DNA of 42,795 nucleotides from Jimgerdemannia flammicorona (Eukaryota): positions 1 through 42,795 of the forward strand of contig RBNJ01000084.1 in the NCBI GenBank assembly GCA_003990765.1, in the 5' to 3' direction. The translations under genes and the position numbers were made by a program. Every line of letters starts with the position of its first letter. Position 1 is the first letter of the stretch. Below are positions 5,467 through 41,153 of this stretch, piece by piece. The notes beneath the pieces were generated by a model. The model worked only from the letters and a program-made list of their open reading frames with translations. It was not told the origin of the DNA and did not search any database.

Positions 5467-5548
5467 GTTGTTAGTCGTCAGATACCAAAAACATTGTAAA
5501 AAGTGTTGTCTGAGTCTTATGTCATCCAAATATTACTGGTGAAAAGGC

Positions 5549-6890
5549 CAACGAGAGCAACTGTCAATGATATCATCTCTGATAAAGTAGTTATCTAAGA
5601 AGAATAGTTTTTAGATTATGTCTCCTTATTCATTTATATAGTAATAGATTGAAATAATATCATTATCTCACAGGATAGTATCATCTGTTTTATATGCTGA
5701 GTAAGGTATCAGTAAGTGAAGAAGAGATATATCATCTTCACTTTTATTAAATTCACTATCTGTATATCTTTTATAGATAACAGCACTATGAGTTACAGAG
5801 TTGTAGTAAGCTGGTAGCTATAATTCATTTTATTTATACTTAAGGGATAGAGTTGTTGGTTCAATCTCAAGGATTGTCTGGAGGTACAGGTTATGTTCTC
5901 CAGTCTCTTCATTATAGTTGAAGTAATCAGATATAAATATAAATTAATACTCATGCTAGTGGTCATTATCTCAATAGGTCTTATAGATAGTTATGAACTG
6001 TTGTAAGTTTATCAGCAGGGTCAGTAGAGTGATCAGAGCTGACAGAAATCCTTAGCTGGAGATTATATCAATATCAGAGGGATCATTATCTTTAGCTTTA
6101 TTATTATCAAACTGAATTATATTATAGATATCCTTTATGGTATATCCAACTTAAAGCATTTGTAGGATATAGTCATCAGAATGGGGGAAGGATCTGTCTG
6201 TAGTTTAAATATACTCAATATACTTATGGTTAAGTTCTTGTACTATATAATTGATTTGACTATAGAACAGAGTAGTAATTATTTTAGTAGTAGTAACTTA
6301 GAGGTAGTGAATAAAGGTACTATATTTATAGAAGAGTTCTCAGTATTTATAGATAATGAGTTTCTGGTATTGAGACATCTGGATAATATCTATATCATGG
6401 TGATATTAAACTATATCTTCTAAAAATAGCCAATCTGGTAGTAGCTTGAGATTTGTCTAATTCAGTATACTTTGCTAAATATATTCAGGGCATTCTATTT
6501 AGCTTCTACAAAGTAGAGAGATTTCAAGCTATGGATATTTATAAGGAGTAGAAGAGGTGTGGCTTAATTGACAATGATATTCCAAATATTAGTATAGATA
6601 TAGTTGTAGATCTCAGTAGTTATGTTTGTTTATATATTTAAGAGTTATAGTTGTTTGTTTAATTTGTTATAGTTCTTTATTTTATTATATTTGTATTTTC
6701 AGTATATATACTTTTAGTCCTAATTAGTAAGACTTTATTTGTATAAATCTTATATTCTATAATTTTGAGTTGACTCAGCTTTATGTTCTATGACTTCAGT
6801 TTGACTCAGCTTCATAATCTTACATGTGATTTCTGGATTTGTTCTGAGGGTGATATGTGATTTCAGTAGCTTAGAGATTGTATACTTATA
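5549..6890 (-). mobile_element. Partial LTR of family B, interrupted by LINE copy 1
   Basis: Colinear with about 27500-28840 and in part with 41860-42444. Similarity stops exactly at the LTR end (tatacttata at 6890 vs tatactcata at 28840), and no PPT follows. Confidence 0.88.
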
Positions 6891-9260: not shown

Positions 9261-10774
9261 TGTCATATAGTGGTCGCTGAGTCCTTCAAATATGCTAGAT
9301 TCTCTTCAAGGTGTATCTCTTAGACTAACTCAAGTTTGTTATAAGCAAGTTCTTATTGGAGTATCTTCTCAAGGTCTTATAGTTCTCAAACTTCTTATCT
9401 TTAACTGTTTTGTTATCTCTTAGATTGTTTGCAAGAGAGTGTGTATAAGTAAAACCAGAACTGACTTTATTTCAGAGGAAATAAGAGGGGTATTTATACA
9501 AAATATAATTCAATGGTTGCTAAGATATAAAGCTAAATATAAATTCTAATAACTAAAACTACTAAGTTTCAGAGTTGGTACTGATGGTTGTACAGGTTCA
9601 GAATACTGGTATAATTCAGTATCACATCAGAATACTAGTGCTGGAACAATTTCACATCACTTCAGAATACCAGTACTAGCATTATCCAGTGTTACATGAG
9701 AATACTGATGCTGGCATTATCCAGTATAATAAGGAACTTAGAGCAGAAAGTTCAGGATCATGGAGGCTTCATCATCATTATCATCATTACTGAAGAAGAT
9801 GAGATCTGCGAATTCATCGTTTTCACATGCTTTGATGTCATGTGGGATGACATCATCACCAATGACGTCATCACATTTGGCAGGGAAATCAGAGGCTCTC
9901 TAATCTATGAGATTCTCTTCCACAAAATAAGGAACAAATGTAGAGTCTTGGGGAGGTCTAACCTGGATACTTGGGCCTTGGAATACTGAGATTAATCCTT
10001 GCAGAAATTGGTCTGAGTTGTTCTGAAGGATGGGATGCCAGAAGTCTTCTACTTCATCACTATTGAGGGTAATAGTGGACTGGGCTTCTGTAGCTACTCT
10101 GGCTTATAGGACATTGATACAGTGGGATGACAGGTCTCTGAAATCTGAGACTCTAATATACTCCAAGTTAGGGATCAACTATGGTGTATACCTGAAGATC
10201 TGATGGATCTTCTTAGCTGTTCTTGCCTTGTGTATATCCATAGGAGTGGTATCTTATAGCTCTTGAGGGCTGGCCTGTGGGAACTCCTGGCAGAAAAGGT
10301 TTTCTATTTTGTACTCCTACCATATTTGGAGATATTCGATAGTAATGATGATCCTTGTTTCCATTTTATAGCAGTAGAGGATAAAGTGATAGGGATCTGC
10401 AGTACCCAGGTTGACACTAGGAGTCCTCCTTGAGCAGGTCTCCATGGCTCTTCTGATGTCTTGGAACATTCTTTCTTCAACTGAGGTACCTTGGTAATTT
10501 CTTGACCATGAGGTTTAGCAGGCAGCAGGCATTTTATTTGTGGTAAGTCTTTGAGCTATTTTGGAATTGGTGGTTCTTGTTGGTTGCTGCTACTGCAGTT
10601 CCTTGATCCTTCTTTTATATTCTTCAGAATGCTTGTACTGTGGTCACAATGACTCACAGTTGGTCATCATTGCTTATCTCATATGCCATATGATCTTCTT
10701 ATGCTCCAATCTGGTGGCTTGCAAGGAAAGGCTATCTCCTGTGCTGATGTCATCATTCTAGAGTCACTGTTACA
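9261..10774 (-). repeat. 3' LTR of element A (1514 bp)
   Basis: TGTCA...GTTACA termini; direct repeat of 16473-17989; adjacent to the PPT. Confidence 0.95.
9738..10532 (-). pseudogene. LTR-encoded accessory ORF of element A (~265 codons), unknown function
   Basis: Same length frame as the 16950-17747 copy apart from one 3-bp indel. The stops read are TAA/TAG/TGA reachable by transitions. Confidence 0.65.
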
Positions 10775-10784
10775 TCTTTCTCCT
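10775..10784 (-). promoter_or_regulatory. Polypurine tract of element A
   Basis: AGGAGAAAGA lies directly before the 3' LTR on the minus strand. Confidence 0.8.
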
Positions 10785-11089
10785 GAATAAGGATCTTCTT
10801 GAGCATCCTTATTCATTAGTCCAGTCCTGAAAAATTTGCTGATTCCATAACCTCTAGCAGGAGTCAAAAAGTGGTGTTTATGAACTGGTGTCTTCTTTTT
10901 GTATTTTGGCATGATGGTGAAGGATCACTCTCTTCATATAGAACAAGGGTCTGATTCTGATCTTGACCAATTAGTTGATGGTTCAAACTCCTCTAACTTC
11001 GAAAGTCTCATGGATGAGTAGTTGCCAGTGCCATATTCCTTAGAGAATGGTCCAGACAGATAGCTTGCTGATTATGGAACATGCTATTA

Positions 11090-12140
11090 CAATTTGCAGA
11101 CTAGAACCTCACAGGCAGTCATTACATTTTGCTTCTCTTGTATAGGTTCATAGTACTTCTTGAGTCTGTTCCTGTATACTGTAGTAGACAGTATGGTCCC
11201 TGAGATTTTTCTAAGCCAGAAGGTGGTTCCCTTGATATCTTGCATGTAAAAGAGTCCTTCTCATTTGGGCTCCAGTTTTCACAACTATGAGGCTTCTACC
11301 ATATTTTGATATAGTAGAACCTTTTCTCTGATTCGGATGAGTTCTAGGGTCTTGTGATTCTTTTCCACATTCTTCCTTATCAGCACTTGTGACTTGGTGA
11401 TATAATCTTCAGCCTTCTTCCTGATTTGGTGTAGTCTCCAGATTTCTGCATCAACCCATCTCCAAGTTAGGTCTAGATTTGTGGCTGAGGTTCCATCAGA
11501 ATCTTCTTCTCTGAAGAGCAGCTCTCTTGGGGTAAAGTGTGTGCTCTGTGACTATATGTCTCATAGGATAGAGAGAGCAGTTGGGAGATAGTTATCCCAA
11601 TTCTCATATGTCTCTGAGATCTTTGCTAGGATGTTCTTGAGAGTCTTGTTGGTTCTCTCTGTCTGTCCATTTCCTTGAGAGTGGTACACAGTGGTCTTGA
11701 TGTGCTGGATCTTATATTTCTGATACATTATCTTGTGGAATCCATTGACAAATTCTGTTCCATGGTCTGTTGTAATTTGCTTTGGTGCCTTGTAGTGGCA
11801 GATGATTTCTCAGTATAGGAAGTTAGCTATAGAGAGAGCATTGGCTTCTTGTAGTGCTCCTGCCTCTATCCATTTGGTAAAGAGGTCTACAATAACTATA
11901 ATATAGCAGTTTTCTGATAGTGTTACTGGTAGTGGTCCAATGATATCCATTGTGATGTAGTGGAAGGAGATAGGCTCAATTCTTGATGACTCAGGTACCT
12001 GGTCTTGCTGATCTTGTTTTTGGCACTTGTCACACTCTTTGATGAATTGGTGCAGGTCTTCTTCCATCTTGGGCCACCACATGGTTCTTCTTGCCTTGTC
12101 ATATGTGTTAGTTCCTCTTAAGTATCCTTGCTTGTGTACT
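11090..12140 (-). pseudogene. Integrase (H2C2, rve core, GPY/F-type C-terminus) of element A
   Basis: WWPKM..CDKCQ, MDIIGPLP, VDLFTKW, TTVYHSQGNGQTERTN and KLEPK*EG..NRLKKY. No chromodomain seen. Confidence 0.9.
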
Positions 12141-12319
12141 TCCTTTATTACTTGATACTTTTTGTATTCAGATATTACTAGTTTTCCTCCTTTTCTGAGT
12201 ATAGTGTTGTCTAGTTCAAACTGTTTCTAAGTCTGGTTGATGATAGTAATTGTCTAGGGTTCAAGATGATTGAGCATCTTCCACTGTCCAAGGTAGCTGA
12301 GTAATCTATAGTATAGCTC

Positions 12320-13556
12320 CTTATTCATGTTGAATAGTCTTAATGGGGGTGTTTCAGGGTGTTCTTGAGAGTGTATTGGCATTAGTGTTGGTCTTTCCTG
12401 AGTGGTACTTGACAGTACAGTCATACTCTTGCAGCCTGTAGATCCATCTGACATATATTCCTTTGGGGTTCAGAGTGTGGAATAGCCAGATAAGAGCAGA
12501 GTGGTCTGTTTAAATGGTGAAGTGTTTCCCAGCTAGGTAGTAGTGGAACTTGTCTACTGCCCAAACTACTGCTAAGTATTCAAGCTTATATGACTCATAG
12601 TTTTGTTCTGCTCCACAGGTGCCTTGGCTTGCATAGGAGATGACATATTCATGTCTATCTTTCTTCTGAGCTAGGACTGCTCCAAGTCCTATAGTACTCA
12701 CATCTGTCTGCAGGATGAATTCTAGGTTCCAGTCTGGTCTTCTGAGGATAGGTGCTTGGGTCAATCTGGTCTTGAGTTTATTGAAGATTTCTTGGTGCTC
12801 CTTGGTCCATTCGAATTTGGTTTTCTTCTTCAGAAGCTCATAGATAGATGCTGCAATATTGGAATATCTTTTGATGAATCTTCTGTAGTAGCTGGTCAGT
12901 CCAAGGAAGGCATGGACTTCTGTGGTTGTTTTGGGTCTTAGGTAGGCTGTAACAGCCTCAATCTTCATAGAGTCTGTGTGGATTCTGGTCTGGTTGATGA
13001 GGTGTCCTAGGTAGGTGATTTCTTGAGCTACAAACTTGCATTTCTTGGACTTGATATAGAGGCCATATTTCTTGAGCTTCTTGAGGGCTAGCTGTATGTG
13101 ATTGATATGTTCCTGTGTAGTGTTGCTGAAGATGATCACATCATCAACATAGACAAAGAGCCATTTTCCAATCTCATTGCTGAAGACTCTGTTCATCATT
13201 CACTGGAAACTTACTGGAGTATTGCACATTCCAAATGGCATTCGCAGGTAAATGTAGGTGGTGTCAGGTGTGATGAAGGCTGATTTCTCACTGGTATCTT
13301 GAGTGAAACCAATCTGATGGAAGCCTGAGAACAGATCCAAGGTGGTGTAGTATTTGGCTTCACTTCCAAGAGTGGTAAGGATTTCTTGAATATTTGGCAA
13401 GAGCTGCCTATCCTTCTTAGTGATGGTATTGAGCTTTCTGTAGTCAATGCAGAGTCTTAGTACAAACTCTCCAGGCTTGCTTCCTTTCTTTGGGACAAAG
13501 ACAATGGGTGAGGTCCAGGGGCTAATAGCTTGCTTGATGATTCTGACTTCCTCCAT
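12320..13556 (-). pseudogene. Reverse transcriptase and RNase H of element A
   Basis: SPWTSPIVFVPKK, LCIDYRKLN, LDLFSGFHQI, MPFG, YVDD, FLGLTSYYRRFI, FILQTD.S..GLGAVLAQ. Confidence 0.95.
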
Positions 13557-13841
13557 TTCCTTGAGTTCTGCTCACAGCCACTCTCTGTAGACAGGTGGTA
13601 TGGGTCTGACTTTCTAGTAGATGAGCTTGGTATCACCAGTGTAAACTTCATGATAGTACTTGGGTTCTTGATTGTGGATATCTCTGAAGTCTGTAGCAAG
13701 TACTTCTTCATTCTGGTACAGGATCTTGACAAGTTGTTCCTCTAGGGGAAAGTTTTCTTCAATGGTATATGTGTGCTTATTCTGGTCCTTGTCTTTCTTG
13801 TGCTCAAGTTCAGTAATCTTGGTGGTAGCATAGACTCCTCT

Positions 13842-14252
13842 TCCAGTAGATCCAAAGCCTTGTTCTTCTCTCTTGGTCTTGATGAGTTTGATGGCTTCTA
13901 TGATCTTAGACTTCTTGACTTCGTGGATCAGCATCTGGCCAATCCTATCATGCTTCTTGACTTCAAAGAGGGTAGTGTAGTTGTGATTCCTGACTATGAG
14001 GAAGATCTCACCAGTGTAATCAGGGTCAATTACTCCTCCTTCAACTGAGATTTCACTTTTGGTCAGGCTGCTCCTGGTCTTGATAATTCTGGCATAGTTC
14101 TCTGGCAGTTTGGCTTCAATTCCAGTGCCAAGTAGGGTGGTGGTCTGTGGTTCAAGGATAGCATCTTGAATGCTGGCAAGGTCCATTCCTATGGCTTCTT
14201 CAGTCTTATATTCTGGGATCTTGGCTTCAAGGTGAAACTTTTTAACCTTGAG
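13842..14252 (-). pseudogene. dut: dUTPase domain between PR and RT of element A
   Basis: All five trimeric dUTPase motifs are present in ORF 13614-14432: GMDL, RSSL, GVIDPDYTGEI, DRIGQM, R...GFGSTG. Confidence 0.93.
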
Positions 14253-14699
14253 GATGATGTCTGATTCTTGTTCCTCCTTATCATTACTATCAGCCTGAAG
14301 CTCTGGGGACTGGTCATCTTCTTTGGCTTTCCTTTTTGCTTCAGTGGCTTCTTGCTCATGTTTCTGTTGACAAATTTTCCTGACTTTACTGATACAAGAC
14401 CAGCAGTCATTCAGGTGTTCAGAGCAGTACATCCTAGTACCATGGGGGCATCTTCCTTGAGGGGCATAGTCATCAATGATCTTGTTGTACTACTGCTCAT
14501 CTGTGAGCTTGGGTGTCTTGTTCTTGTTCTTGTTCTTGTTTACCAAGTGCATGAAGACCTCTGTGTCCTCTTCATCTCCTTCCTCCATGTCTGGTAGAAC
14601 TCCTTTATGGATATTGATAGAGACTCATACCTTTCTTCCTCTATAGTTAATCTGCATCTTCTGGACATTGAGGTCAATGATGGCCTTGACCTTGTGAAG

Positions 14700-14965
14700 C
14701 CATTGGTTGTCAATGAGGATGTCATAGTTGGTGGCACTTATAACAATCACGTCTACTGGGATAGTAGCTCCTCCTATCTTGATGAGGACTTCTCGGATTT
14801 TGCCAAGGAGGGTAGCTCATATACTATCTGCTGTAATATAGACCATCTTGGTGGACTCTTCAATGTCCCAACCTAGGCAGTCAATTGCCTTCTTGCTCAT
14901 GAGGTATCCTCTAGCACTAGTATCAATGATGGCATCAAAGATACAGTCTTCAATCTGGCAGGAGG
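14700..14965 (-). pseudogene. Aspartic protease of element A
   Basis: FDAIIDTSA is a decayed DTGA active-site motif. Confidence 0.8.
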
Positions 14966-15229
14966 TATAGGCTGATGTCTTGTGCTGGTATTCAGATTCT
15001 TCATCTGAGTTCTCGGATTCTTCCTGTGCATTGTGAGCTTCTACAATCTTGTACTCTTGATTCTTGACAGTAGTTGCAAGTCCTACTCTCAACTGCTGTC
15101 TGAAGGCAGGGACTTCAGCTAGCTGTCCAAAAGTGGTATTGACCTTCTATTCCTTAAGATCCTTGTAGATATCATACTGGTGAATCTTGGTCTTGTGCAG
15201 CTTCTGTTCCTTCTTGCTTTCACTTTCTT

Positions 15230-16420
15230 CTGAGACTGGAGTAGTACCTTCAATGATTTGGCAGGCAGCTTCATCTAACTCCATATCTTGATCAATCTTC
15301 TCAGGTTGGGTCTTGCTTTGAATAGTGATAGCTGGGGTCTTCTTTGGTCTTCCAACTGACTTGCTGTTGCTCTTCTTGTCATAGGGCTTGGACCAGGTTC
15401 TGGTACCTTCAGTAGTAGGGTAGAATTCAAGCTCCTTGTAGTATTATTCATCATCAGTGTCACCAATCTCCTCAATGACTACTGTATTGGTTTGTTCTCT
15501 GGTTCTGCTAATATTGCTTAGTTGGGCTTTGTGTCTTATTTCAGTTATGCAATTCTTTGCATAGTGGCCTTCTTCTCCACATCTGAAGCATGTGATATTG
15601 TGTTCTTCTGTAGCAGCTGCAAATCTCTGCACCGGTCTCCTGTTGGCACTTCAGACTTCTCTAACAACATCACTAAGGTGTGCAGTTATCTTGGCAAACT
15701 GCTTGGCAAGTTCTTTCACTGGATCAGCTTTGGCTGTCTTGGGGGTAGGTGGGGTTGGTTGTCTGTTTACAACTGTGGTAGATATAATACTAGTTGGCTT
15801 TGATGGCTCCATCTTGATGCCAGTTATTTTCTCCATTGAGTGTTCAGCAAGGTGTCTGGCAGTCCAATATCTCTGTGCAAAGATCACTTTCTGATCAAGG
15901 GTCAGTACAGCTAAGGTAGACCAGATTGCTAGAGCAATTTCAGGGTGAACTCCTTTGAGGAAGATTGAATCTACTATTTGTTCCTTGAGGGCATCATTAT
16001 AGCCAGCCAGGACAATCTGGTGACAGATTCGGGTATAGAATGAGTTGGGATCTTCACTAAGTTCCTGGCAGATAGTATTGAGTTAATCCTTGAGAGCTTG
16101 CTTGATCTCTTCGGTATAATATATTATTCTGAAGAAGGCCTTCATATTGACAAGTTTGGCTGTACCAGTATCAGCAATAGTAGTTGCATTGAACTTATCT
16201 CTGGTAGGTCCTCTGAGGCTGACTGGTAGAAGGGCCAATTGAGCATCCACACCAAGAGCTTATATAGTAGCGAATTGTTCAAAGTCTTCAATGAAGATCA
16301 GGATTAACTCTTCAGTAGTATATTTATAAAATGTTGGGGGGCACATTTCTATCTTGTCTTGAATTCTTATAGAGGTAACTCTTGTAGTTAAGGTAGTTGT
16401 TGTGGGAGTTGTTCGTTTTT
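15230..16420 (-). pseudogene. gag with CCHC zinc knuckle of element A
   Basis: CFRCGEEGHYAKNC at 15549-15590, with capsid-like motifs upstream (PPTF..., FIEDFE, Q..SEDPNSFY, FLKGVHPEI). Confidence 0.85.
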
Positions 16421-16472
16421 CAGCTTGAAAGTGAGGAATTCATCTTGAATTACCAGCCAATAGGTACTAAGT

Positions 16473-17989
16473 TGTCACATAGTGGTTACTGAGTCCTTCA
16501 AATATACCAGATTCTCTTCAAGGTATATCTCTTAGACTAACTCAAGTTTGTTATAAGCAAGTTCTTATTGAAGTGCCTTTCTAAGGTCTTATAGTCCTCA
16601 AACTTCTTATCTTTAACTATCTTGTTATCTCTTAGATTGCTTGTAAGAGAGTGTATGTAAGTGAAACTGGAACTGACTTTATTTCAGAGGAAATAAGAGG
16701 GGTATTTATACAAAATATAATTCAATGGTTAATAAGATATAAAGCTAAATATAAATTCTAATAACTAAAACTACTAAGTTCCAGGGTTGACACTGATGAT
16801 TGTATAGGTTCAGGATGCTGGTATAATTCAGTATCACATCAGAATACCAGTGCTGGAACAATTTCATATTACCTCAGAATACCAGTGCTAGTATTATCCA
16901 GTGTTACATGAGAATACTGGTGCTGGCATTATCCAGTGTAACAAGAAACTTAGAGCAGAAAGTTCAGGATTATAGAGGCTTTATCATCATCATCATCATC
17001 ATCACTGAAGGAGATGAGATCTGCGAATTCACCATTTTTGCATGCTTCAATGTCACACAGGATGATGTCATCACTGATGACATCATTACATTCAGCAGGG
17101 AAATCAGGAGCTCTCCAATCTATGAGGTTCTCTTCTACAAAATAAGGAACAAATATGGGGTCTTGGGGAGGTCTAACCTAGATGCTTGGGCCTTGGAATA
17201 CTGAGATCAATTTTTGCAGGAATTGGTCTGGGTTGTCCTGAAGGATGGGATGCCAGAAGTCTTCTACTTCATCACTATTGAGAGTAATAGTGAACTGGAC
17301 TTCTATAGCTACCCTGGCTTCTAGGGCATTAATATAGCAGGATGACAGGTCTCTGAAATCTGAGACTCTAATATACTCCAAGTTGGGGATTGACCATGGT
17401 ACATGCCTGAAGATCTGATAGATCTTCTTAGCTGTTCTTGTCTTGTGTATATCTATAGGAGTAGTATCTTGTAGCTCTTGAGAGCTGACCTGTGGAAACT
17501 CCCAGCAGAGAAGGTTTTCTATTTCATACTCCTACCACATTTGGAGGCATTCAGTAGCAATGGTGATCCTTGTTTCCATTTTATGGCAGTAGAGGATAAA
17601 GTGATAGGGATCTGCAGTATCCAGGCTAACACTAGGAGTTCTCCTTAAGTAGGTCCTCATAGCTCTTCTGATGTCTTGAAACATTCTTTCTTCAACTGAG
17701 GTACCTTGGTGATTCCTTGACCTTGAGGTTTAGTGGGCAGCAGGCATTTAATTTATGGTAAGTCTTTGAGCTATTTTGGGATTGGTGGTTCTTATTGGTT
17801 ACTGCTACTACAATTCCTTAATCCTTCTTTTATATTCTTCAGGATGCTTGTACTGTGGTTACAATGACTCACAGTTGGTCATCATTGCTCATCTCATATG
17901 CTGTATGATCTTCTTGTGCTCTGATCTGGTGGCTTGCAAGGAAAGGCTGTCTCCTGTGCTGATATCATCATTCTGGGGTCACTGTTACA
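16473..17989 (-). repeat. 5' LTR of element A (1517 bp)
   Basis: TGTCAC...GTTACA termini. About 13 differences from the 3' LTR in the first ~130 bp, all transitions. A decayed PBS-like TAGTACC lies adjacent at about 16464-16470. Confidence 0.95.
16950..17747 (-). pseudogene. LTR-encoded accessory ORF of element A, 5'-LTR copy (~266 codons)
   Basis: Includes listed ORF 17178-17381 in frame, with only three internal stops in my translation and an acidic DDDDDD tail. Confidence 0.68.
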
Positions 17990-18264
17990 CTATATATAAC
18001 TAATTAGATATATAGCTACTTTAGTTATTTATAATGTCCTTTGTATTCAGGACAGTTGCTTTTGGTTTTGTGATCAGTGCAATTGTTTTTGGTAATGCAT
18101 TAGTTAAGTAATACAGTTGCTACAGCACTGGTGCAGATTCCAGTGTTCAGGGGGTTTGGTATCTTGTTTTCTGCGTTCGTTCGTACGTCTCATTCGCGAC
18201 GTCATCGCTCGCCGGGTCACGTGATCGCCATTCGTGGTATGTTGCGAATGTAATTCTTATTACA
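17990..18264. repeat. Continuation and terminus of the LTR family D fragment
   Basis: Joined to 9051-9260 by the CTAT TSD. It ends in ATTACA, the inverted match of the TATAAT (TGTAAT) start at 42445. Confidence 0.5.
18174..18246. promoter_or_regulatory. CpG-dense micro-island with E-box and CRE-like motifs
   Basis: 14 CpGs in 73 bp, including GTCACGTGAT and CGACGTCA; the surroundings are nearly CpG-free. Confidence 0.55.
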
Positions 18265-18270
18265 CCAGCT

Positions 18271-18342
18271 AAAACACTTATTCCAAGTAGAATACCTGTT
18301 CTAAGTAGAATATCTGTCTCACAAGGAACACTTATTCCACAT
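18271..18342. repeat. Degenerate 18-bp tandem repeat, 4 units
   Basis: aaaacacttattccaagt / agaatacctgttctaagt / agaatatctgtctcacaa / ggaacacttattccacat. Confidence 0.7.
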
Positions 18343-18485
18343 AGAAACAGCAGTCATATCTTCTCTAAATTAGCCTTATTGCACATTCTATAATTATTTA
18401 GATAGTAATCAGATAGTAACCATACTTATATAAAATACCTCAGAGATTTGAGTGAATAACTCTTAGTCTGAAAAGTCAAAGCCAA

Positions 18486-21400
18486 TTTTTTTATAGTCAC
18501 TTGGACTCCTTTATTATGGTAACTATATAATACAACAATGACTCCATCTAATAACTACTATAACTATAAATATAAGAAAGAGTCCATCAGCCTACACCCT
18601 CTTTCCACTGCACTCTCTTCTCACCAAGCACTAGGTACTCCTGACTCCTCTGAACAATGTCTAGTACCTTCCTCATGGCCTCCAACTGGTGCCTCTTCCC
18701 CTGATACCACCACCCTTGTATCACTTCCAAAAGTAGTCCCTTCTATCACTCTACCAATTTGCTAATTCTCATCTAAGGATCTCTCTTGAACACCTATTGC
18801 CAGTACACTGCCATCAGGACCCAGATACCAATAATCTGACCCAGACCACTCCAAATGTCCCCAATCTCTCCCACCAGTTGCCACTTGACCACCCGACTAG
18901 TGGGGCCCCCTGCTCACTCACTCTTATCACCCCAATAGCTTTCTAACATCTGTCAAAATTCCTCAACTCCTGGATATGCCACTAAGATATGCTCTGACAT
19001 CTGCACCACACCCCCATCCAGCTCACAACACCACTCACATTCCCTTATACCTTTGGCCTCTATCTACCCCATCCTGTACTCCAGCATAATATTCCTTTAT
19101 AAAAATCTCTACCATACTATCCAAAACTTTGGTAGTACAACCTTGAGTAAGGAGGTCCCCCAACCCCAAACCTGACCCCACTTCTAATCTTCCCCAAACC
19201 CAGCCTTCTGCCAACCAACTGGCCACCTCTCAAGTAGACCCATCCAGATTCATTTCATTGTCCCAGACAGAGAGTATTCTGCTAACTAATGACCACTAAT
19301 ATGAATATCTCTAAGTTGCCACCATTGCTATTCCAGGTCCTTCTCTTTGCTTGGCTCTGGATCTGTGAGTCTCATTGCTAGCCAAGCCTCTACAATACTC
19401 CACTAGAATCTCTGGTAATACAATCTACTAACCCTTCCAACCTGAAGCAAGTCTCATATTTTTCTGAACCTTACTACAGAGGCAAAACCTGACTTCCCAA
19501 TTGTCTATAGCCAGTTTGCCCTAGCTATCCACTCCTAATTCTATCAGTCAACAACTCCACTAGCTCTGAAGTACCTTCAGCTGCCTCCTAAAGTCTACTA
19601 GCTCCAAACTACCATCTACTGTCTGCATTACCACTATCTCCTAACTAATCTGTGATCTTCTTTCTTGCCACAGCCATTCTTCTTCAGTTTCTGTACCACC
19701 TATCCAGGAAAGTCCAAATAGTATTCCAAATACTATAGCTTTGGTAGCCAATATACATTCAATACTACAATTCTCCCCACCAAAGAGAAGCCCCTTTCTG
19801 ACTAGTCTACCAAAGTGCTCTCCCATTTCTGTATCATTTCACACCACTACTCCTTTGGCAGTACCATCCCATATACTGAGAACTAGACACCCAAATATTG
19901 AACTGCCTCTCTAGTACTGACCAGTTGTCCAAAATGTCTATACTCTCCCAGACCAACTCCAAGCTCCATAGTCTCACACTTGCCCCAATTCAGCTTTACC
20001 CCTGCCAGCCTCTTGTACTGTCCTATCCCTTTCTGTAAGCTTGCCACATCTGCCATACAGTCTAACTCTACCACCATATCATCAGCAAAGGCCCCCAGCT
20101 TCCAGACCACATCCCCTATCTTCAGTCTGGTAAACCTCCCCTTCAGTCATACTAACAAAGACTCCAAAGACAAAATATAGAGCAGGGGTAAAAGAGGATT
20201 CCCCTGTGGCACACCTCTCCCCAAGACAAACTCTGGGCCACTCCACCTATTCATTAGTACTACAGCCCAACAGCCTCACACCAGACCCATCAGTTTCTGA
20301 GCCTCCACTACACTGAATCCTGCCTTCTACAGAACTGCCTCTAAATAGTTCTACTGCACCCTATTGTAAGCCTTTTCCTGATCTAAGAACACCATTCTTC
20401 CATCTACTTACCAGCTTCTACAGTTCTCCAAAATGTTTTGTACCTAGGCTGTACTGTCTCGAATCTGTCTCCTCTTCACAAACCCTCACTGTTCTTCACT
20501 CACCAATTGGCCAATCCATCATTGCATTCTCTCTACCAGAATCTTGGAGACCAACTTTCTGTCCACATTCAGTAACATAATGGGCTGTCAGTTCTGCCAC
20601 ATATGTCAATCCCCTTTCTCCTTATAGAGTAGAGAGACTAACCCTAAGGAGCTATTACTGATCCAGCAGTCTTTACTCAATATAAAGTTCACTATTTCAA
20701 CAAGTCATCCCCTAAACTCAACTTGAAACTCCTTCCAGAACTCCCAAGGCAGTCCATCCTCCCCTGGTGATGAACCAGTCTGCACTTTCCTCAGAATCTC
20801 CAATACCTCTTCAAGGGCCACTATACCTATTACTACTCCACCTATCTCAGGCACTACTACTACTGACCAGCTATCAACTAAATTATCATTATCCTTCAGT
20901 AAAGCCTCTCTCTCCACTGGCCCTTCTTTATCCTACCATAGAGTGCACTATTGACCAGAGATCTCTCCAAGCATATCAGTAATATCAGTAACCTCAACTC
21001 TATCCTCTCGCAACACCAAAGCCCAGCTATGCTATACCCTCCTAGCCTTCAAGATTCCTGATAAGTATTTAGTGAGTTGTTCTCCTTCTTCCAACCATCT
21101 TGCCTACAGTCTTATCAATAGCCCATCTACCACCCTATCTTCTGCTGCCTTCAAATCCAACCACAACTCAGTCACCTCCTTGGCTAACTGGGATTGTCAT
21201 TTCTCTGATAAATTCTCTCTTTCCAGAAATCTCAGCTACCAAAAAAGTCTCTGTTCAACTCTTCTTTCTCTATCCTTCTGCTCCCTTCTAGCTACCTCCC
21301 CCACATTATGTCAATATATACCTGCCAAATGTTTAAATTTCCCCCACTACTGTGCTATTGACTATCTACTGTTCTTCTACTGCATCACTTTCTGCCTTGC

Positions 21401-22930
21401 AATTATCACAAACTGGTCTCTCTCTATCTGTTTTTTGAGTAGTATCACATTGAGTTGCCATCTACCTCCACCTCTACTGACTATCTGAAATCTCCCACAT
21501 ACCTCTACTTCCCAGTGATCTGACCAAGAATACCACCATACTCCTGTTGAATCCAATATGTTACCCCAGCATTCTGCTATCAGAATCCAATCAATCCTCA
21601 TTCTAACCAAGTTCTTGCCAACTGGATACCACTTAGTAAATGGCCCTGGCCTCTTCCCTTAATGTTGTCATACCCCATTAACCAATTCCATATCTCTCTC
21701 AACCTGGAGCCATTATGAGAGCTCTGCTGATACAGCTACACCAACTCTACCATCAGATCTATCTAATGTCCTGTTATGTACTATGTTAGAGTCCTCCCCC
21801 AGAATGTCCAGCCTAATCTCATCTCAGTCTCCCCAAGTCAGCCAACCCTCCATCTATTGGTTTTACTCTCTACCAACTACCAGCAGATAGGTAGAGCCAA
21901 CTACTAGTCTATCTCCAGCTCTTCCTTTCAATCTCCCCCAGATCAATTGATCACTATATACCTTAACTTCCATCAGCTCACCTCTCTCCAAGCCAACCAA
22001 AATACCCACCTGCTCATTCAAACCTGTACTTCCATATCATTCTCTGCTCCAATCCTCATAATATTGCTCCCCATAGGTCCAAATATCCTGCAGAAACACC
22101 ACATCATATCTCCTGACCTTCAGCCAATGAAATAGATGCCTTCACTTTACTCTATCACACAAATCATTGATATTTAACAATAAAATACATAGACTGTTCA
22201 TCATCATAAATAAAAATGTTTAAAGCTCTGCTGGGATTACCATCACCTTTTCAGCCCAACTACAGATTATTGCCTTCCATTCCATACAGATAGCCCTCCA
22301 GATATGGGCTCTATTTATACTACTGCAGAAGATATCCACTTACTCAGATACCACCTTCCTGATGTCAGCCATATGGTCCTCATCTACCTCATATTCTTCA
22401 TCATCCAGAAGTACTGCCACTATCACCATTACTAACTTTGGCCCCTGTAATGCCATATTGAGGAACCCTTCCTAGGTCTCCTGAGATCCATTAAATACAT
22501 CCACTTCCTTGATATCCTCCTCCACAAGTCCCTCAAGTACTGCCTGATACCAGTCATCAGCCATCATTACCAGGGGCCCAGGAGTGGCTGGCCTCAGGGT
22601 CCTACTTAGTTCCTGTAGCATCTCTCTACCCACCAATACATCAGAGGCCACATCCATCAGGTCATCCTCCTCCATACCCTTCTCCAGCCACACCACTTCA
22701 CCTGTCTCTGGATATTCCCAATGAACATTTACTGCTCCTGCTATATGAATATCCTCCAACTGAGTCTTTGACACTATCTTAACAATCTCCTCAAAACCCC
22801 CTACATTTGTCTCCTCTCTATCAGCCTACTTCCCCTTCACTGGTATATGAGCCAAGCTCTCTACACCCCCCAGTTGCAAAAAGGACACCTCAGCTATCTC
22901 CACCTCTTCCATCTGACTCTTGGCCATCTC
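18486..22930 (-). mobile_element. 3' portion of a more divergent L1/Tx1-like LINE (ORF1 C-terminus, ORF2, poly-A)
   Basis: EN start MNSLCILLLNIN..FLQDI near 22200, then RIDWIL, WSDH, SPGEDGLPWEFW and LGAFADDMVV. A7 tail at 18486-18492. Confidence 0.88.
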
Positions 22931-25350
22931 TGCCCTTTCTTCTCTCTACCCTCTGCCCTCCATCAATTCTATCTAATAGTACATTTTTGACTATATTAAA
23001 GTTCCCACCAAGTACATCCACTCTAGCTCCTGTCAGAGTCCCTTTCTCCTGGAGACCCTTCAGCTACTCTACACACTCACCCTGTACTGCTAAATAGTAG
23101 CAGGATCCAACTGTAATCAGTTCCTGACCAGAGCAAATCTACTCACCCCAGACCAGCCTATCTTTCTAGTTCTGTATATCTCATATCTCTCCTCTGCTCT
23201 TCCTGACCAGAATCCCAACCTTGCCCTTCCAAACTGTCTCTCCTCTCCATTTCTTTGTCTATTCCAGTTTATTCAAATCACCCTCATATCTGATATCCTA
23301 CAAAAGAAAGAGATCAGCCTCCAATCACTTTAGTATTCTATTGATGAAATGAACCCTAAAGCCTATTCACATTTAAAGAGAAAATGTTGGTCATACTGTT
23401 TATAAGGAATAATATATAATAGTAGGCATATCCTCTACTGCTCCATGTTCATCTCATCCTGAGCCAAGTCCAGATTATATTCCACAGCTTTCTTCTCTTC
23501 AGTTCTCTTAGTCTCCATTTCAGTCAGAAGTTCTATAAACTCTCCATCCTCCTTCTCCTTGAATTCTTTACAATATTTCAGGCAGACCTCCTGCTAGAGC
23601 TACAACCCATACCACTCTGCTCAACAGAAAACAGCTCTCTCACCAGCAGTAACTACCAGTCCAGCCTCTCTCTCCTTATCAACCTCATACCCTTCCTCCT
23701 CCAGGAAAACTGCAAGAATCTCTGCCTTCAACACCTCCACCACTCTCTCACTATGCAAGATACATACCCAATATTCATCACTCATCACTTACAGATCCAC
23801 CTCTGATGCAAAGTTATTCATCATCTTACACATCCAGAGCAGATTTCCCACCTCCTTCCCCCCAGGAGTCACTGGCCACCCTCTATCCAGCATTAAGATA
23901 TCAGCTCCTACACTTGCAGCCTCATCCCACTCCTCTTTCTGAATATCTCCTCACTCACTACCACTACCTACCCCCCCCTTTGCCTTCTCTCCCCCTCCTG
24001 GTCCCTTCTCTGTATTCTCTCTATCCTTACTGGCCCAGATGCTCTCCTTGGCTCTCTCTATGATTTCAATACCACCAGCATCCTTCTTTGCCCTGCTTTT
24101 CAGTTTTGCCAACAACTCTCTCTGCCTCTTATGTTCTTGGGATCTTTTCCACTACCCCTTATCTACCTGAACTCTCTTTTCATATACCACTTTCAGATAT
24201 ATCAACTTGATATACACCTTCTAAGCCTTAGCCCTCCACTCTACAACATCACTCAGCTCTTTCAGTGTCTTCAGCAGATCCTCTTCCTCCTCCTCACTCT
24301 CCTTCACCCTCATCACCTTATACAAGAAAGCCCCCCAGACCATTACTAAAGGCCAGTCTCTAGCCTTTCTGGTAGTTTTCTTCTCTGCTAACCAAATTCA
24401 AACATCAATATCCCCAGTCCTGAATGAGGTCCCCTTCCAGACCCAAAACCCAACATTGATCACCTCACTATACTCAGCCATAACTTCCTCAACTCTTCTT
24501 CTTGTCTCCTCAGTGGTTATCATAGACACCCCCTTCACCAGTAATTGTGCCACCCTGGGGTCTCACCTTAAGTAGCACACCATTGGAACACACATCTCTC
24601 CAACTATCAACCCTACCTTCAGTGCCTCCTCTAATGGTCCAGTCTCCTCAAAACCAACTTCTACTTCTTCCAGTTCTTTCAGGAACTTCACAGATACTGC
24701 TCTAGCCACCTGCTTAGCAATCAGCCCCAGGACTATTTTCACCATCACTGCTAAGTCTTGGAAGCACAAAGTGATTGTAAACTCCAAAATTGACTTCTTG
24801 AGTAATGGTGTCACCACCAGTTCTATTATACCATCTGCCAAATTGCTAGGCCTTGTGCCTTTCCCACTGCTCAGTCTATTATCAGCAGTCCCATCTAGAT
24901 TTTTTTCCTGATTATCTGTCACACTCTCATCAGCAGTCACTCTCTCAGCCCCTACACCACCAGTCCCACTACTCTGACCCCCCAGAGAGACTCCCCCTCA
25001 AGGCTACTGCTCAGCAGTCTTCACCATCTCCTTATCCCTCCTAAGCCAGCCCTCCAGTCCAGCTCCCTGCTGACCCCCCCTTCATCTTATCCACAAAGCT
25101 TGTCCTCTCTGTCCCCTGATCTCCAGTGCTGTCTCCTCCCCTACTATATTCTCTTATCAGCAGACCCCTCATGCTTCCCCCCAAGCCTGGGCTCCTCTCT
25201 ACATACTGCCAGTTGAATACACTCAGACTACCCTGCTCAGTATACACCTCAGAATACTCTTTAGTTGCTATGATACTAGTAGCTTTTCTTTAAAAACTAT
25301 GTTGAAAGTGTTGTCAAAAGATTGTATAACCTGAATATTACTGAAGAAAG
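22930..25350 (-). mobile_element. 5' portion of a LINE close to copy 3 (5' UTR, ORF1, truncated endonuclease)
   Basis: Colinear with about 34050-36652. A second EN start NSMTNIFSLNVN lies near 23400, with GNFN..LDRIDGG ending near 22940. Confidence 0.85.
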
Positions 25351-25378
25351 ACATGCTATGGATTGAAACATAAAGTAC

Positions 25379-26805
25379 ATATAAGCAACTATTACTACTC
25401 TGCATCATCTCAATAATCTGACCATTAAGACAGTAGATTTTATTAAGTTAAAATCAACTACCAAGGCTCTAATCAAAGAAAGTCAAAAAGTAGCTAGATA
25501 TGACCTATATATAGCCAAAGAAGCTATAGTTTTCAACTAAGAAGTCAAACAAGTTTATATAGGAATCAGTATTCAAATTCCTGAAGGATATATTAGAAGA
25601 ATATACTGTTACAGCAGCCTAGCATTAAAAGGACTCTCAGTAGAAGAAGGAATCATTGATAAAGATTATATAAGTAAAATCATTATCCTTATCTGAAACT
25701 ATAGTTGGATACTATTCAAGATCTCTATTGATTTTTGTATTACTCAGATTCTATTTGAAAAGATTAAGTCAACTCTGACAATCAAGGAAGTCTCTGAACT
25801 ACTGCCTACTATCTAAGGATCTAAAGGATTTGGCTCATCAAATAAGGCCCCAGCCCAACCTACCATAAATAAGGAGAAATAATTCTATAAGAAAAGTGAA
25901 GATAAATTTATACCAAGTAGCTGATGACCTTATAGTATTAGAATATACTCTTCTTGAATAATTGAAAATTGCTTCTCTTATATCAATAAACTAGCTCAAA
26001 GAAGAACCAATAGAAGAAAAGCTTCTATAATTGAAATTACTACTATTGGATCAGACAAACTGCTTACTCTCCAAGCTTTTATTAATCAAGTACCTGTTAA
26101 GATCATAATAGACAGTAGTGCCTCTGGCAATTTCATCAATGAAGAAACAGCCAATAGACTCAAAGTTCTGACCTCTCCAATATAATAGACTCAAGCTATT
26201 GTTATAGCTGATAGAACCTCACATATTATTAATAAGGAAGTCTGCAACCTATCCTTCAGAATTGGCAATTACTAAGTATATATCACACTCTAAATCATAC
26301 TACTTCCTGATAATGAAATCATCCTTAGAACTCTATGATTAAAGCAAGAGAACTTCATGATTGATTGAGTAAACTATTCTCTAACTATTAAGAAAGGACA
26401 CTATAATATCAAACTATAAGACAAAAGAGACCCACTCAATTATAGACTCAAGGATTATATATATCAATAAGCTATAACTTAAGAAATTGGCCAAGAAATG
26501 CCCTCTTTTTGCTATCTCTATCTGACCATCTAAAGGAGAACCCAAGAATAATAAAAAAGACTTCTCTAAAGTTGACAGTTGCATTAGACCTCTACTCTAG
26601 AAATTCTGAGATATATTCTTAAAGAAACTCCTGAAAGGCCTACCATCTAAATGAGCAGTAGATTATATCATCAAGATCATCCCAGATACCAAGCCTACAT
26701 TCAAGTCAATCTACTATATATCTCTAAGAGAGATTGATATACTCAAGAAAGAAATCAATAAACTTCTAGAATAAGGATTCATTAGACCTAATATATCTCT
26801 ATATA
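25379..26805 (+). mobile_element. Internal fragment of a family-B gypsy element (dUTPase, protease, start of RT)
   Basis: Reverse-complement homolog of about 37810-39185. dUTPase at about 25436-25840 (YDLY, SSLALKG, GIIDKDY, GFGSS); protease IDSSASGNFI at about 26108. Cut at the IRP.IS.Y motif by the LTR starting at 26806. Confidence 0.88.
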
Positions 26806-28840
26806 TATAAGAGGGTTACTTATAAAAGTACTATTATATAGTTCTGAAAGAGTTTTCTAGAAGTTCTGGATATTCTGAAAGATTGTTTTCTTTAGGTCAA
26901 GATCAATTTTATATAGAGTATATTCTCTATACTATTGATTTTAAGATCAGATTGACATCTCAACTAAAGTTCTTTTTTAGACTAGTTCTGGATATTCAGA
27001 ATTTTCTATATTTCAGAAAGTTTAAGAAACTAAGACTAGCTTAGTTGAATTAGCATATCACTGCAGACAATACCCAATTAGGAAATTTTATGATATAGTT
27101 AGGAGTGAGACCTAACAGGATATAGATTTACTTAAGAGTAGTTTGTAGGTTATTAAATAGGTTTATAATATTACTATACTAGGAGTAGTGTGTAAATAGA
27201 TATTGTAAGGAAGTGTTCAGGAGTTCTTATATATTCAGATCTGTTCAAGTCTGAGTTTCTGAGATCTAAGAGAGCAGATATTTATACTAATAGAGGTTAT
27301 CTAGACTATACTAAATATGGATATATGTAGCACTTAGTGTCTTACTGAGTCAGAATATAGTCATATAATACAAGTGTGAACTGATATGTCAAGAGATCAT
27401 CTGACTGCTGAGTCAGTATATAGTCACATTATATAAGACTAATCTAACTATACTAATAACTGCTAAGCTATCTATAGATTTAGATACTATCTAGGTAGTC
27501 TTCAATGAAGTCACTATTGATATTATCTCTGATAAAGTAGTTATCTAAGAAGAGCAGTTCTTGGATTATATCTTCTTATTTATTTATATAGTAGTAGGTT
27601 GGAACCATGTTACTATCCTATAGGATAGTATCATCTGTTTCATATACTGAGTAAGGTATCAGTGAGTAGAGAAGGGATACATCATCTTTGCTTTCATCAA
27701 ATTTACTATCTGCATATCTTCTATAGATAATAGTACTATAGATTACAGAGTTGTAGTAGGCTGGTAGCTGTGATTCATTTTGTTCATACTTAGAAAGTAG
27801 AGTTGTTGGTTCAATTTCAAGAGTTATCTAAAAGTATAGATTATATTCTCTAGTTTCTTTATTGTAGTTGAAGTAATTGGGTATAAATGTAGATTGATAC
27901 TTATGCCAGTGGTCATTATTTCAATAGGTCTCATAGATGGTTATGAACTATTATAAGTTCATTAGCAAGATCAGTAGAGTAATCAGGGCTGGCAGAGATC
28001 CTTAGCTGGAGGTCATATCAGTATTGGAGGAGTTATTGTCTTCAGCTTCATTGTTATCAAACTAGATTATATTGTAGACATTCTTTATGATATATCCAAC
28101 TTAGAGTATTTGTAAGATATAATTATCAGGATAAAGGAAGGATTTATCTGTAGTTTGAACATACTCAATATACTTGTAGTTAAGTTCTTGTATTATATCA
28201 TTAATTTGGTCATAGGACAGAGTGGTAATCATTTCAGTAGTAGTAACTTAGAGGTAGGAAATAAAGATACTATACTTATAGAAGAGTTCTCAGTACTTAT
28301 GAGCAATGAGTTTCTGGTGTTAGGATATCTGAATAATATCTGTATTATAGTAGCATTCAACTATATCTTCTAGGAGGTGACTGATCTAGTAGTAGCTTGA
28401 GATTTGTCTAATTTGGTAGACTTCACTAAGTATGTTCAGGGCATTCCATCAGGCTTCTACAAAGTAGAAAGATGCTAGACTATAGATATTCATGAGGAGC
28501 AGAGGAGGTGTGGTTCAGTTGACAATAGTATTCCAAATGTCAGTATATATGCAGTTATAGATCTTGGTGGTCATATCTATATATATTCAAGAGTTGTAGT
28601 TATTTATTTGGTTTATTATAGTTCTCCATTTCAATGTATCTGTATTTTCAGTATATATATTTTTGGTCCTGATTAGTAAGGCTCTGTTTTATGTAAATCT
28701 TATATTTTATAACTTCAAGTTGACTCAGCTTTGTGTTTTGTGACTTTGAGTTAACTCAGCTTCATAATCTTATATATGATTTCTGGATTTGTTCTAAGAG
28801 TGACATGTGATTTTGGTGGCTTGAAGGTTGTATACTCATA
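26806..28840 (-). repeat. 3' LTR of element B (~2035 bp)
   Basis: The start TATAAGAGGG corresponds to TGTAAGAGGG at 41154. The end is defined by the 6890 copy and the adjacent PPT. Confidence 0.88.
27490..28574 (-). pseudogene. LTR-encoded accessory ORF of element B (>=200, possibly ~360 codons)
   Basis: ATG at 28574 (MTTKIYNCIYTDIW...). The frame is kept in the copy starting at 6623, and stops are transition-type. The 3' limit is uncertain. Confidence 0.58.
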
Positions 28841-28854
28841 ACTCTCTTCTTTTT
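28841..28854 (-). promoter_or_regulatory. Polypurine tract of element B
   Basis: AAAAAGAAGAGAGT abuts the LTR on the minus strand. Confidence 0.75.
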
Positions 28855-36652: not shown

Positions 36653-37990
36653 ATCCACAATAATATTCTCCTTACTAGAGTGATACTGGATTTTGTAGTC
36701 AAAATTAGTGAGAACTTTCATCTATCTGGCTTGCTTTTGAAAAAGAGTAGCCTGGGTCTTAATATTGATTAATAGTTTATAATTTATCAGTATAGTAAAG
36801 TGGGCTCCTTTGTGGTATAGTTACTATTTAATCAGAGTATCTACAATGACTAACATTTTCTTCTTATAGGTTATATAGTTAATTTCAGCATTATTGAACT
36901 TACAAGAGTGGTAGGCTACAGGGTGTCCTTCTTTCATGAGTACTGCTCTAAGGGCTAGATTAGAGGCATTGGTAGTAACTTTATATAGTAAGGCAGAATT
37001 TGGTGCTTGAAGTACTGAAGTGGTTATCAAGGTATCTTTCAACACTTGAAAGGCTGTGTCTTATTCAGGTCTCCAATTTATAAGATTGTTGAAGTCTTTT
37101 TCTTATATTGTGGTCCAGAGTTGTTCTTCTTTTTTACTATGTTTAGTTATTTGAGTCAGGGTAGTAGTAATCTTAGTGAAGTTTGTAATAAATTATCAGT
37201 AATAGTTTGCTAGTCCTAGAAATAACTGAAGGTCTTTTAACTTTTGAGTCTGGTCTATTTCTTAATCATGAAGATTTTGCTGGAGTTTACTTTGATTCTA
37301 TTGAGAGTGACAATGTGTTCAAGAAATTGAATTTCCTTTAGAAGGAATTCATATTTGTTGAGTTTCACAAAGAGTCAGTTTTCTTAGAGCTTCAGTAGTA
37401 CTAGTTTAAGATATTCAAGGTATTTCTCTAGGGTTTTGCTGAAGACTAGGATGTCATTAATGTAAACAATAACAAATTTGTCTAGATACAGGTATAGGAT
37501 GGTATTTATCAGTATCTGGAAGATTACAGGAGTATTAGTTAAGCCAAAAAATATAACCAGAAACTCAAAATGTCTATAGTGAGTTCAGAAGGCAGTTTTG
37601 TAGATATCTTCTTCTTTTATAACAATTTGTCAATAGTTATTTCATAGGTCAAAAGAGCTCATAAACTGTGTATTAGTAAGCCTATTGAATATTTCATTAA
37701 TTTAGAGTAGTGGGTAGCAGTTCTTGATAGTTTTCTTATTGAGGTTATGATAGTTTATATATATTTATAGGTCTCCTTCTTTCTTGATCTCAAAGAGGAC
37801 TGGTATACTATATAGTGATATACTAGATCTAATGAATCCTTATTTTAGAAGTTCATTGATTTTTTTCTTGAGTATATCAATCTCTCTCAGAGATATATGA
37901 TAGATTGACTTAAAGGCAGGCTTAGCATCTGAGATAGTCTTGATAGTATAGTCTACTGCTTTTTTAGGTGATAGACCTTTTGAGAGCTTT
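36653..37990 (-). pseudogene. RT and RNase H of element B
   Basis: FVIVYINDILVF (decayed YIDD), FLGLANY and VTTNASNLALRAVL..HPVAYHS. Confidence 0.88.
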
Positions 37991-38289
37991 TTTGGAAATA
38001 TGTCTCAGAATTTCTGAAGTAGAGGTCTAACATAACTATTAACTTTGGAAAAGTCTTCTTCATTATTCTTAGGTTCTCCTTTGGATAGTTAGATAGCAAT
38101 AGCAAAGAGAGAGCATTTTTTGGCTAGTTTCTTGAGTTGCAGTTTGTTGAATAGATGATCTTTAGGCCTATATTACTAGAGTTGTATGGGTCCTTTTTAC
38201 CTTGCAGTTTGAAATTATAGTATTCTTTCTTAATAGTCAGAAAATAGTTTACCCAATCAATCATAAGGTTCTCTTGTTTTAACCATAGG

Positions 38290-39130: not shown

Positions 39131-39299
39131 AGTATCTTAGTAGTTAGGTTGTTAAGGTGATACAAAGTAGTAACAGTTGCTTATATTGTTGTTCAGAGTT
39201 TTCAGTTAGAGCAGACACTGGTTATATATCCTGTATTTCAGTAATAGAAGTATACTCTACTTCTTCAGAGTTCATTTCTTTCTCCTTTAGTGAGTTTCT

Positions 39300-41114: not shown

Positions 41115-41138
41115 CTTAAAGTAAAATTGGATTGTAAA

Positions 41139-41150
41139 TCACTGCTACCA
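41139..41150 (-). promoter_or_regulatory. Primer-binding site, probably tRNA-iMet
   Basis: TGGTAGCAG begins 3 nt from the 5' LTR and is complementary to the TGCTACCA 3' end typical of eukaryotic initiator tRNA-Met. Confidence 0.75.
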
Positions 41151-41153
41151 AGT

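Follow-up and report, generated by a model that had tools for sequence, protein, structure and literature searches.

A very likely accessory gene in the U3 region of a Ty3/gypsy retrotransposon of Jimgerdemannia flammicorona, and its probable decayed homologue in a chromovirus

A 42,795-nucleotide stretch of the Jimgerdemannia flammicorona genome (GenBank assembly GCA_003990765.1, contig RBNJ01000084.1, positions 1 to 42,795 of the forward strand; hereafter the window) was analysed for open reading frames (ORFs) located inside the long terminal repeats (LTRs) of Ty3/gypsy retrotransposons. Self-comparison, ORF and Pfam scans, and tblastn with the proteins of one of these elements, element A, showed that the window is a nest of retroelements on the minus strand. 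Two Ty3/gypsy elements, A and B, carry long frames, ORF-A and ORF-B respectively, in the U3 part of their LTRs (Table 1). A first-pass annotation of the same DNA had proposed that two different gypsy lineages encode homologous accessory proteins inside their LTRs. Both frames that it quoted are indeed present on the minus strand, as confirmed by motif look-up and translation; they are on the sense strand, since gag and pol also occupy the minus strand, and they belong to U3, since they lie upstream of the LTR TATA box. The two lineages are distinct as well, element A having the order protease (PR)-dUTPase with no chromodomain found and element B the order dUTPase-PR with a chromodomain. The limits of the repeats had to be corrected: the intervals called LTR-A, 9738-10532 and 16950-17747, are ORF-A itself, the true LTRs covering 9261-10774 and 16473-17989, and the starting points proposed for LTR-B, 28574 and 6623, are the first methionine of ORF-B, LTR-B running from 28840 to 26806, from 6890 to 5560 and, in a third copy, from 42444 to 41154.

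Element A shows the full set of Ty3/gypsy features, namely direct LTRs with TG..CA ends, a target-site duplication, a polypurine tract, the order PR-reverse transcriptase (RT)-RNaseH-integrase (IN), and gag upstream. Its complete domain order on the minus strand is gag(CCHC)-PR-dUTPase-RT-RNaseH-IN, with Pfam matches to dUTPase (2.4e-25), RT_RNaseH_2 (2.9e-34), RVT_1, Integrase_H2C2, rve, zf-CCHC and Asp_protease; no chromodomain was detected by Pfam at E<=0.1 in the three read-through frames. The two LTRs are 89.6% identical over 1518 bp in the self-comparison, the identity opening exactly at TGTAAC and closing at GTGACA, and ATAG at both flanks of the element represents a 4-bp target duplication. 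In the ESM Atlas, the RT/RNaseH ORF matches gypsy RT families, mostly from Streptophyta.

ORF-A lies wholly within U3, extending from an ATG (17747 in the 5' LTR, 10532 in the 3' LTR) to a TAA (16950 and 9738); its start lies 242 nt inside the LTR, and 239 nt separate its end from the TATA box at 16711. Both copies are interrupted in this window. Three stops interrupt the frame of the 5'-LTR copy, a TAA at codon 7 and a TAG at each of codons 87 and 205; the 3'-LTR copy has six, two of which are common to the 5' copy. Nevertheless, the ORF-A frame contains 3 stops in 266 codons compared with 8-24 in the other frames, and outside the limits of the ORF the frames are alike. A nested insertion as the origin of ORF-A was set aside, as self-comparison and LTR alignment showed no internal repeat boundaries.

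The interruptions of ORF-A correspond to the general mutation pattern of the window. Of the 156 differences between the LTRs of element A, 152 are transitions, 96 of these in a CpA context, and the LTR pairs of element B show a similar pattern. Across the window, transitions make up about 97% of the changes that distinguish repeat copies and fall mostly at CpA, and the observed/expected ratio of CpG is 0.00-0.06 in every repeat except the first copy of a long interspersed nuclear element (LINE), where it reaches 0.2. Near-exclusive C>T and G>A change between repeat copies with preference for CpA characterises repeat-induced point mutation (RIP), and the window shows such a RIP-like signature together with near-total CpG loss. 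As the first-pass annotation had stated, the stops of ORF-A are derived by transition, almost all of them being C>T or G>A; both ORF-A copies are dead through this RIP-like mutation, mainly at CpA.

Relatives of ORF-A exist as intact frames elsewhere. A search of 5.8e9 proteins retained 7 relatives among 112 candidates, and an exhaustive profile search of 1.84e9 representatives with the ORF-A family gave five clusters at E<=0.001 and nothing else. Ten distinct relatives are known in this way (P0001-P0007 and P0009-P0011), all of them uninterrupted ORFs of 138-342 aa, with 30-83% identity among themselves or to the window copy; none bears an informative name or domain. Among them the core is invariant and the N-terminal start conserved, insertions and deletions keep the frame, and gaps are confined to the acidic tail. 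Four of them (P0005, P0009, P0010 and P0011) are at 30-51% identity and yet open for 200-342 codons. At the positions of the two stops common to both window copies, the relatives carry Q. Longer, fused forms of the family were absent among 7999 candidates, which is weak evidence. The ORF-A proteins form a small, conserved, unnamed family. The two copies in one frame, the open relatives, the Q residues at the shared stops and the frame-specific depletion of stops provide strong sequence-level evidence for a genuine conserved gene under selection that was pseudogenised in this window, and we regard it as very likely that ORF-A is a real U3-resident gene.

Two further features of LTR-A accompany this frame. 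A TATA-like box, ATATAAAAG, is found in both LTR copies 88 nt upstream of the ORF-A ATG and represents a candidate LTR-internal promoter. A 35-bp tandem repeat sits between the ORF-A stop and the main LTR TATA box, a placement that is enhancer-like. A CWNNF-type string occurs both in the antisense translation of this repeat and in the frameshifted C-terminal tail of P0007, which hints that the P0007 contig may carry the same LTR region.

Element B is a chromovirus with the order dUTPase-PR-RT-RNaseH...IN-SH3-chromodomain (SH3_Tf2-1 4.1e-8; Chromo 1.3e-5, the latter exceeding the gathering score by a small margin). A LINE inserted at about 31000-36650 divides the internal part of the element, and a sequence resembling a primer-binding site, TGGTAGCAGTG, follows its 5' LTR at 41140-41150. 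ORF-B likewise lies wholly in U3, with about 266 nt of the LTR before its start and 288 nt between its end and the TATA box at 27288. In the full LTR-B copy, the raw frame holds 14 stops in 327 codons. Blind to ORF-A, the sequence was restored by putting back C or G at each position where at least one of the three copies still has that base; the restored frame has 6 stops in 334 codons, and the five remaining frames have 8-40. In the part covered by three copies, 1 stop remains in 166 codons versus 5-25 in the other frames, and the last 161 codons are stop-free; beyond the end of ORF-B all restored frames are similar in stops. Since the depletion of stops in this frame runs to a second acidic stretch, where ORF-B ends, we assign it about 332 codons; the earlier limit at the first acidic stretch (about 180 codons) was too short, as the frame continues for some 150 codons to 27576. 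A search for database relatives of ORF-B, with X at the stops, returned none among 460 candidates. ORF-B likely represents a decayed gene whose position in the LTR is that of ORF-A.

LTR-A and LTR-B show no significant nucleotide similarity, as had been noted (blastn with word size 7, best E 0.049, the hit not being collinear). Their layout is the same: a sense ORF begins about 250 nt into the LTR, and a TATA box lies 240-290 nt beyond its end. The relationship of the two proteins was approached with profiles of the ORF-A family. A profile of eight sequences scored restored ORF-B at 4.0 bits, and the addition of three more distant relatives raised the score to 8.8 bits (E 5.1e-5; HMMER, single target, Z=1). 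None of 3000 composition-matched shuffles reached 8.8 bits, their maximum being 6.1, and reversed ORF-B scored -5.1. When 15 B frames were examined with the 11-sequence profile, 12 gave no domain, the raw B2 ORF frame gave 2.3 bits and the raw B1 frame 2 gave -2.2; among 252 six-frame chunks of the window, the best match other than A was again the raw B2 ORF frame. The local scores of eight family members against ORF-B, once summed, correspond to a z of 4.35, a sum that none of 500 shuffles reached. Local alignment permitting long gaps, with seven members, gave a z of 3.55 against global shuffles (0/400) and of 2.8-3.0 against block shuffles that keep the local composition (fraction 0.0025 of 400). 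The matched blocks are collinear, lie at an equal offset from the LTR start and agree with the alignment of the first-pass annotation. Taken as a comparison of sequences, these results suggest that ORF-A and ORF-B are probably homologous.

The explanation that we favour, with moderate confidence, combines these elements: ORF-A would be a genuine conserved U3 accessory gene, dead here, and ORF-B an old, heavily mutated homologue descended from a common ancestor. Reverse transcription copies such a gene to both ends of each insertion, because U3 comprises everything between the polypurine tract and R, and would leave it on solo LTRs. The idea of a U3 accessory ORF that would travel on solo LTRs had been put forward before, and the ten intact relatives with their frame-keeping insertions and deletions make it a strong one for ORF-A. 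Its place in the genomic RNA is 3' of pol, as with the 3' accessory genes of retroviruses. It could be expressed from the TATA-like box (17835 and 10620), with the AATAAA of the LTR acting as terminator, or alternatively from a sub-genomic RNA. In an extended version, which we consider quite improbable, the U3 gene of this fungal Ty3/gypsy clade, with its own TATA box and the LTR polyadenylation signal, would make every LTR, solo ones included, a self-contained gene for a trans-acting factor. This factor would be an LTR activator, or an RNA-export or anti-silencing adaptor, serving the whole family, and its gene would be older than the divergence of the lineages with different dUTPase positions and with or without a chromodomain.

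The family members have an isoelectric point of 4.1-5.9. Their first 40 residues carry a charge of +1 to +8 in P0001, P0002, P0009, P0010 and the window copy, in which the N-terminus is present, and the acidic-hydrophobic C-terminal tail has a charge of -10 to -13 per 40 residues. Based on the basic N-terminus, the helical core and this tail, one may tentatively imagine a nuclear regulatory factor that would activate transcription from the LTR or act as an adaptor in RNA handling, though we hold such a function to be doubtful. The transactivator or anti-silencing role put forward in the first-pass annotation is likewise conjectural. An env-like gene was set aside by eye, without a transmembrane predictor, the proteins being acidic and lacking any long hydrophobic stretch.

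Several observations weigh against the favoured explanation. The motif match of the raw translations, on which the first claim of homology was built, is no better than chance: the raw pairwise Smith-Waterman score of 29 lies below the mean of the shuffles (31.6) and is attained by 70% of 1000 of them. After C/G restoration the pairwise score is 50 (p 0.013), yet unrelated frame pairs reach 67, which makes this score unusable. Semi-global alignment of family members to ORF-B gives a z of 0.08, and hhalign of A versus B a probability of 10.4% (E 0.003, 26% identity over 74 columns), the B side having no profile because ORF-B found no relative among the 460 candidates. The summed z-scores overstate the support, since the family members are related and not independent. 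Signal above chance came only with a profile based on the database relatives of ORF-A. As for ORF-A itself, the relatives are known as ORFs on short contigs (778-1625 nt), and the LTR placement is seen for the window copies alone. Two of its stops are common to both LTR copies, so the inserted element A may already have held a dead ORF; with a CpA hit rate of 17% and 15% in the two LTR copies, about six double hits are expected over the whole LTR, and these stops may be either parallel hits or inherited. The TATA-like box has to be seen against the fact that AT-rich DNA often contains such strings. Finally, structure and domain searches gave little. Pfam returned nothing above cut-off for the ORF-A pieces and their relatives, the sole listing being NpmA at E 0.026, far below cut-off, and a PDB sequence search with the family profile had no hits at E<=1. 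AlphaFold2 with the 11-sequence alignment produced a poor model, mostly helices at low confidence (predicted local distance difference test score 52.5, predicted template modelling score 0.41), and with this low-confidence model Foldseek found no match in the PDB at E<=0.001 (best E 0.67). In the ESM Atlas, the best score of P0001 was 0.86, below the useful range, and the nearest clusters were unnamed and mostly basidiomycete.

The strongest competing explanation, still an unlikely one, is that both U3 ORFs are real but unrelated, each lineage having acquired or evolved an accessory gene of its own at the same permissive place, downstream of the polypurine tract and upstream of the promoter. 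The weak match to the profile would then reflect chance together with the acidic and helical composition that both proteins have in common. This would suit the raw pairwise and semi-global scores at chance and the low hhalign probability, the extra length of ORF-B (about 65 codons, the alignment needing an insertion of about 80 residues) and the differences between the elements in domain order and chromodomain. It agrees less well with the behaviour of the A profile, which matches only the ORF-B frame in the window and whose score was reached neither by the shuffles nor by the reversed sequence; the collinear blocks at equal offset and the small block-shuffle fraction also argue against it.

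It is very unlikely that the frames are not functional genes at all, being instead chance or decaying frames, for instance a captured host fragment, whose relatives are gene-caller ORFs on other repeat copies. The short contigs of the relatives, their lack of an informative name or domain, the broken state of both window copies and the absence of a fold or family match would fit this possibility. However, neutral decay at the distance of the most diverged relatives would break the frame, so that their long open frames count against it, as do the invariant core with gaps restricted to the acidic tail and the depletion of stops, which in both LTR families is limited to the ORF frame and to the ORF limits. 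A recent exchange of the module between the lineages, by LTR recombination or by template switching between co-packaged RNAs, is scarcely credible: the different domain order with a common LTR layout would favour it, and the available part of PMC10787394 describes recombination of LTRs between subfamilies of the fungal element crapaud, but the LTRs are without nucleotide similarity and the identity of the ORFs (about 26%) is no higher than the 30-37% found by tblastn for RT and dUTPase (35-37% for the dUTPases). The module had initially been described as shared or exchanged; since the ORFs are at least as diverged as the enzymes, old common descent fits better, and ORF-B was most likely inherited from a common ancestor.

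One LINE occurs in three diverged minus-strand copies with 64-73% identity (1-5560, about 18000-25350 and about 31000-36650), every one of which adjoins B-gypsy sequence. Its RT has LINE-1 ORF2p as best match (7e-20), and an apurinic/apyrimidinic endonuclease (APE)-like N-terminus lies near 3564->2893. In the LINE copies the plus strand contains 32-39% C and 12-14% G, so that the sense strand is G-rich with an extreme skew. Adjoining the B 3' LTR, the segment 25556-26809 on the plus strand is an inverted partial duplicate, with 82% identity, of the B dUTPase-PR region at 37804-39059 on the minus strand; it is a piece of a further B copy that has been rearranged. The segment 42445-42795, which precedes the truncated B 5' LTR, does not match the other LTR-B copies and represents either inserted sequence or the terminus of a different element. 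Between the truncated LTR-B and element A, the segment 6891-9260 (24% GC) gave no Pfam hit in the minus-strand read-through frames and may be B internal region mutated beyond recognition.

Table 1. Retroelement features of the window, with coordinates on the 42,795-nt stretch
Feature	Coordinates	Strand	Basis or remark
Element A, complete Ty3/gypsy, 8.7 kb	9261..17989	-	LTR pair, Pfam hits, ATAG flanks
5' LTR of A, 1517 nt, TGT...ACA ends	16473..17989	-	LTR alignment
3' LTR of A, 1514 nt	9261..10774	-	polypurine tract 10775-10784 directly before LTR
ORF-A, 5'-LTR copy, 265 codons + stop	16950..17747	-	translation, 401 bits in profile search
ORF-A, 3'-LTR copy, same frame throughout	9738..10532	-	translation, profile search
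Putative main LTR-A TATA box (16699-16711) and AATAAA (16678-16683)	16678..16711	-	downstream of ORF-A; function assigned by position
TATA-like box ATATAAAAG, candidate LTR-internal promoter	17827..17835, also 10612-10620	-	in both copies; putative function
35-bp tandem repeat, 3.2 copies	16816..16943		Tandem Repeats Finder; counterpart in 3' LTR near 9600-9730
LTR-B full copy, ~2.03 kb, 3' LTR of the B chromovirus	26806..28840	-	purine tract 28842-28854 before LTR; ...ACA end
LTR-B copy cut by a LINE	5560..6890	-	holds ORF-B at 5626-6623 with a 1-nt frameshift
5'-truncated 5' LTR of element B (LTR-B)	41154..42444	-	holds C-terminal part of ORF-B, 41932-42444
Element B internal 5' part: dUTPase, PR, RT, RNaseH	36651..41153	-	Pfam on read-through frames, tblastn
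Element B 3' part: IN-SH3-chromodomain	28841 to ~31000	-	Pfam on read-through frames
ORF-B, ~332 codons	27576..28574	-	translation; frame-specific stop depletion after C/G restoration
dUTPase regions	13617-14489 (A); 38709-39065, 25562-25849 (B)		A after protease, B before protease

LTRs are usually regarded as non-coding promoter and terminator modules, and variation in their length as regulatory sequence. If a conserved gene resides in U3, annotation pipelines that mask LTRs would systematically miss a gene family, solo LTRs could stay protein-coding, and env-less fungal retrotransposons would have a 3' accessory gene content resembling that of complex retroviruses. If, moreover, the homology of ORF-A and ORF-B holds true, the gene is old and has been retained, which would point to a role in the life cycle of the element or in the evasion of host silencing, the latter in genomes that attack repeats by RIP-like mutation.

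Accessory frames have been described in other Ty3/gypsy elements, among them brtn, which we take to be an antisense gene. In the accessible portions of the respective reports, brtn is an extra ORF of the Botrytis element BcGypsy1/Boty (10.1101/2021.04.13.439636), an 'add. ORF' is listed in fungal chromoviruses (PMC2864245), and additional ORFs are given for elements of bdelloid rotifers (PMC5408684). Like ORF-A and ORF-B, these are accessory frames of unknown function beside gag and pol; the same portions present them as belonging to the element and do not place them inside the LTR, whereas here the ORF lies entirely in U3. The dUTPases also have counterparts: excerpts of PMC2864245 report dUTPase-bearing Ty3/gypsy elements in Postia placenta (PosPlaTy3-3/-4/-5, with variable dUTPase positions), Phanerochaete and Tuber (Tmt1), and an excerpt of 10.1101/2023.09.13.557621 reports enrichment of dUTPase in the gypsy elements of Entomophthora. 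The positions seen in element A (between PR and RT) and in element B (before PR) match the variability of the Postia elements. In contrast to the present case, none of these excerpts describes an LTR-resident ORF. More generally, the partly available literature on fungal LTR retrotransposons yielded no description of a U3-resident ORF, which is not proof of absence.

The closest parallels are found in retroviruses, where the sag gene of mouse mammary tumour virus (MMTV; the 'LTR ORF'), nef of the human and simian immunodeficiency viruses (HIV/SIV) and bet of foamy viruses are located in U3 or overlap it. ORF-A and ORF-B have the same layout as sag and nef, both being on the sense strand, 3' of pol, inside U3 and upstream of the TATA box (16711 and 27288). 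As in MMTV sag, nef and bet, the gene extends the LTR beyond 1 kb and is present twice, once at either end of the element. ORF-A differs from sag and nef in sequence and fold, no similarity being seen by Pfam, PDB sequence search or Foldseek on the low-confidence model. It differs also in its host, which here is an env-less, apparently fungal Ty3/gypsy element; this is a retrovirus-style U3 accessory gene in a retrotransposon.

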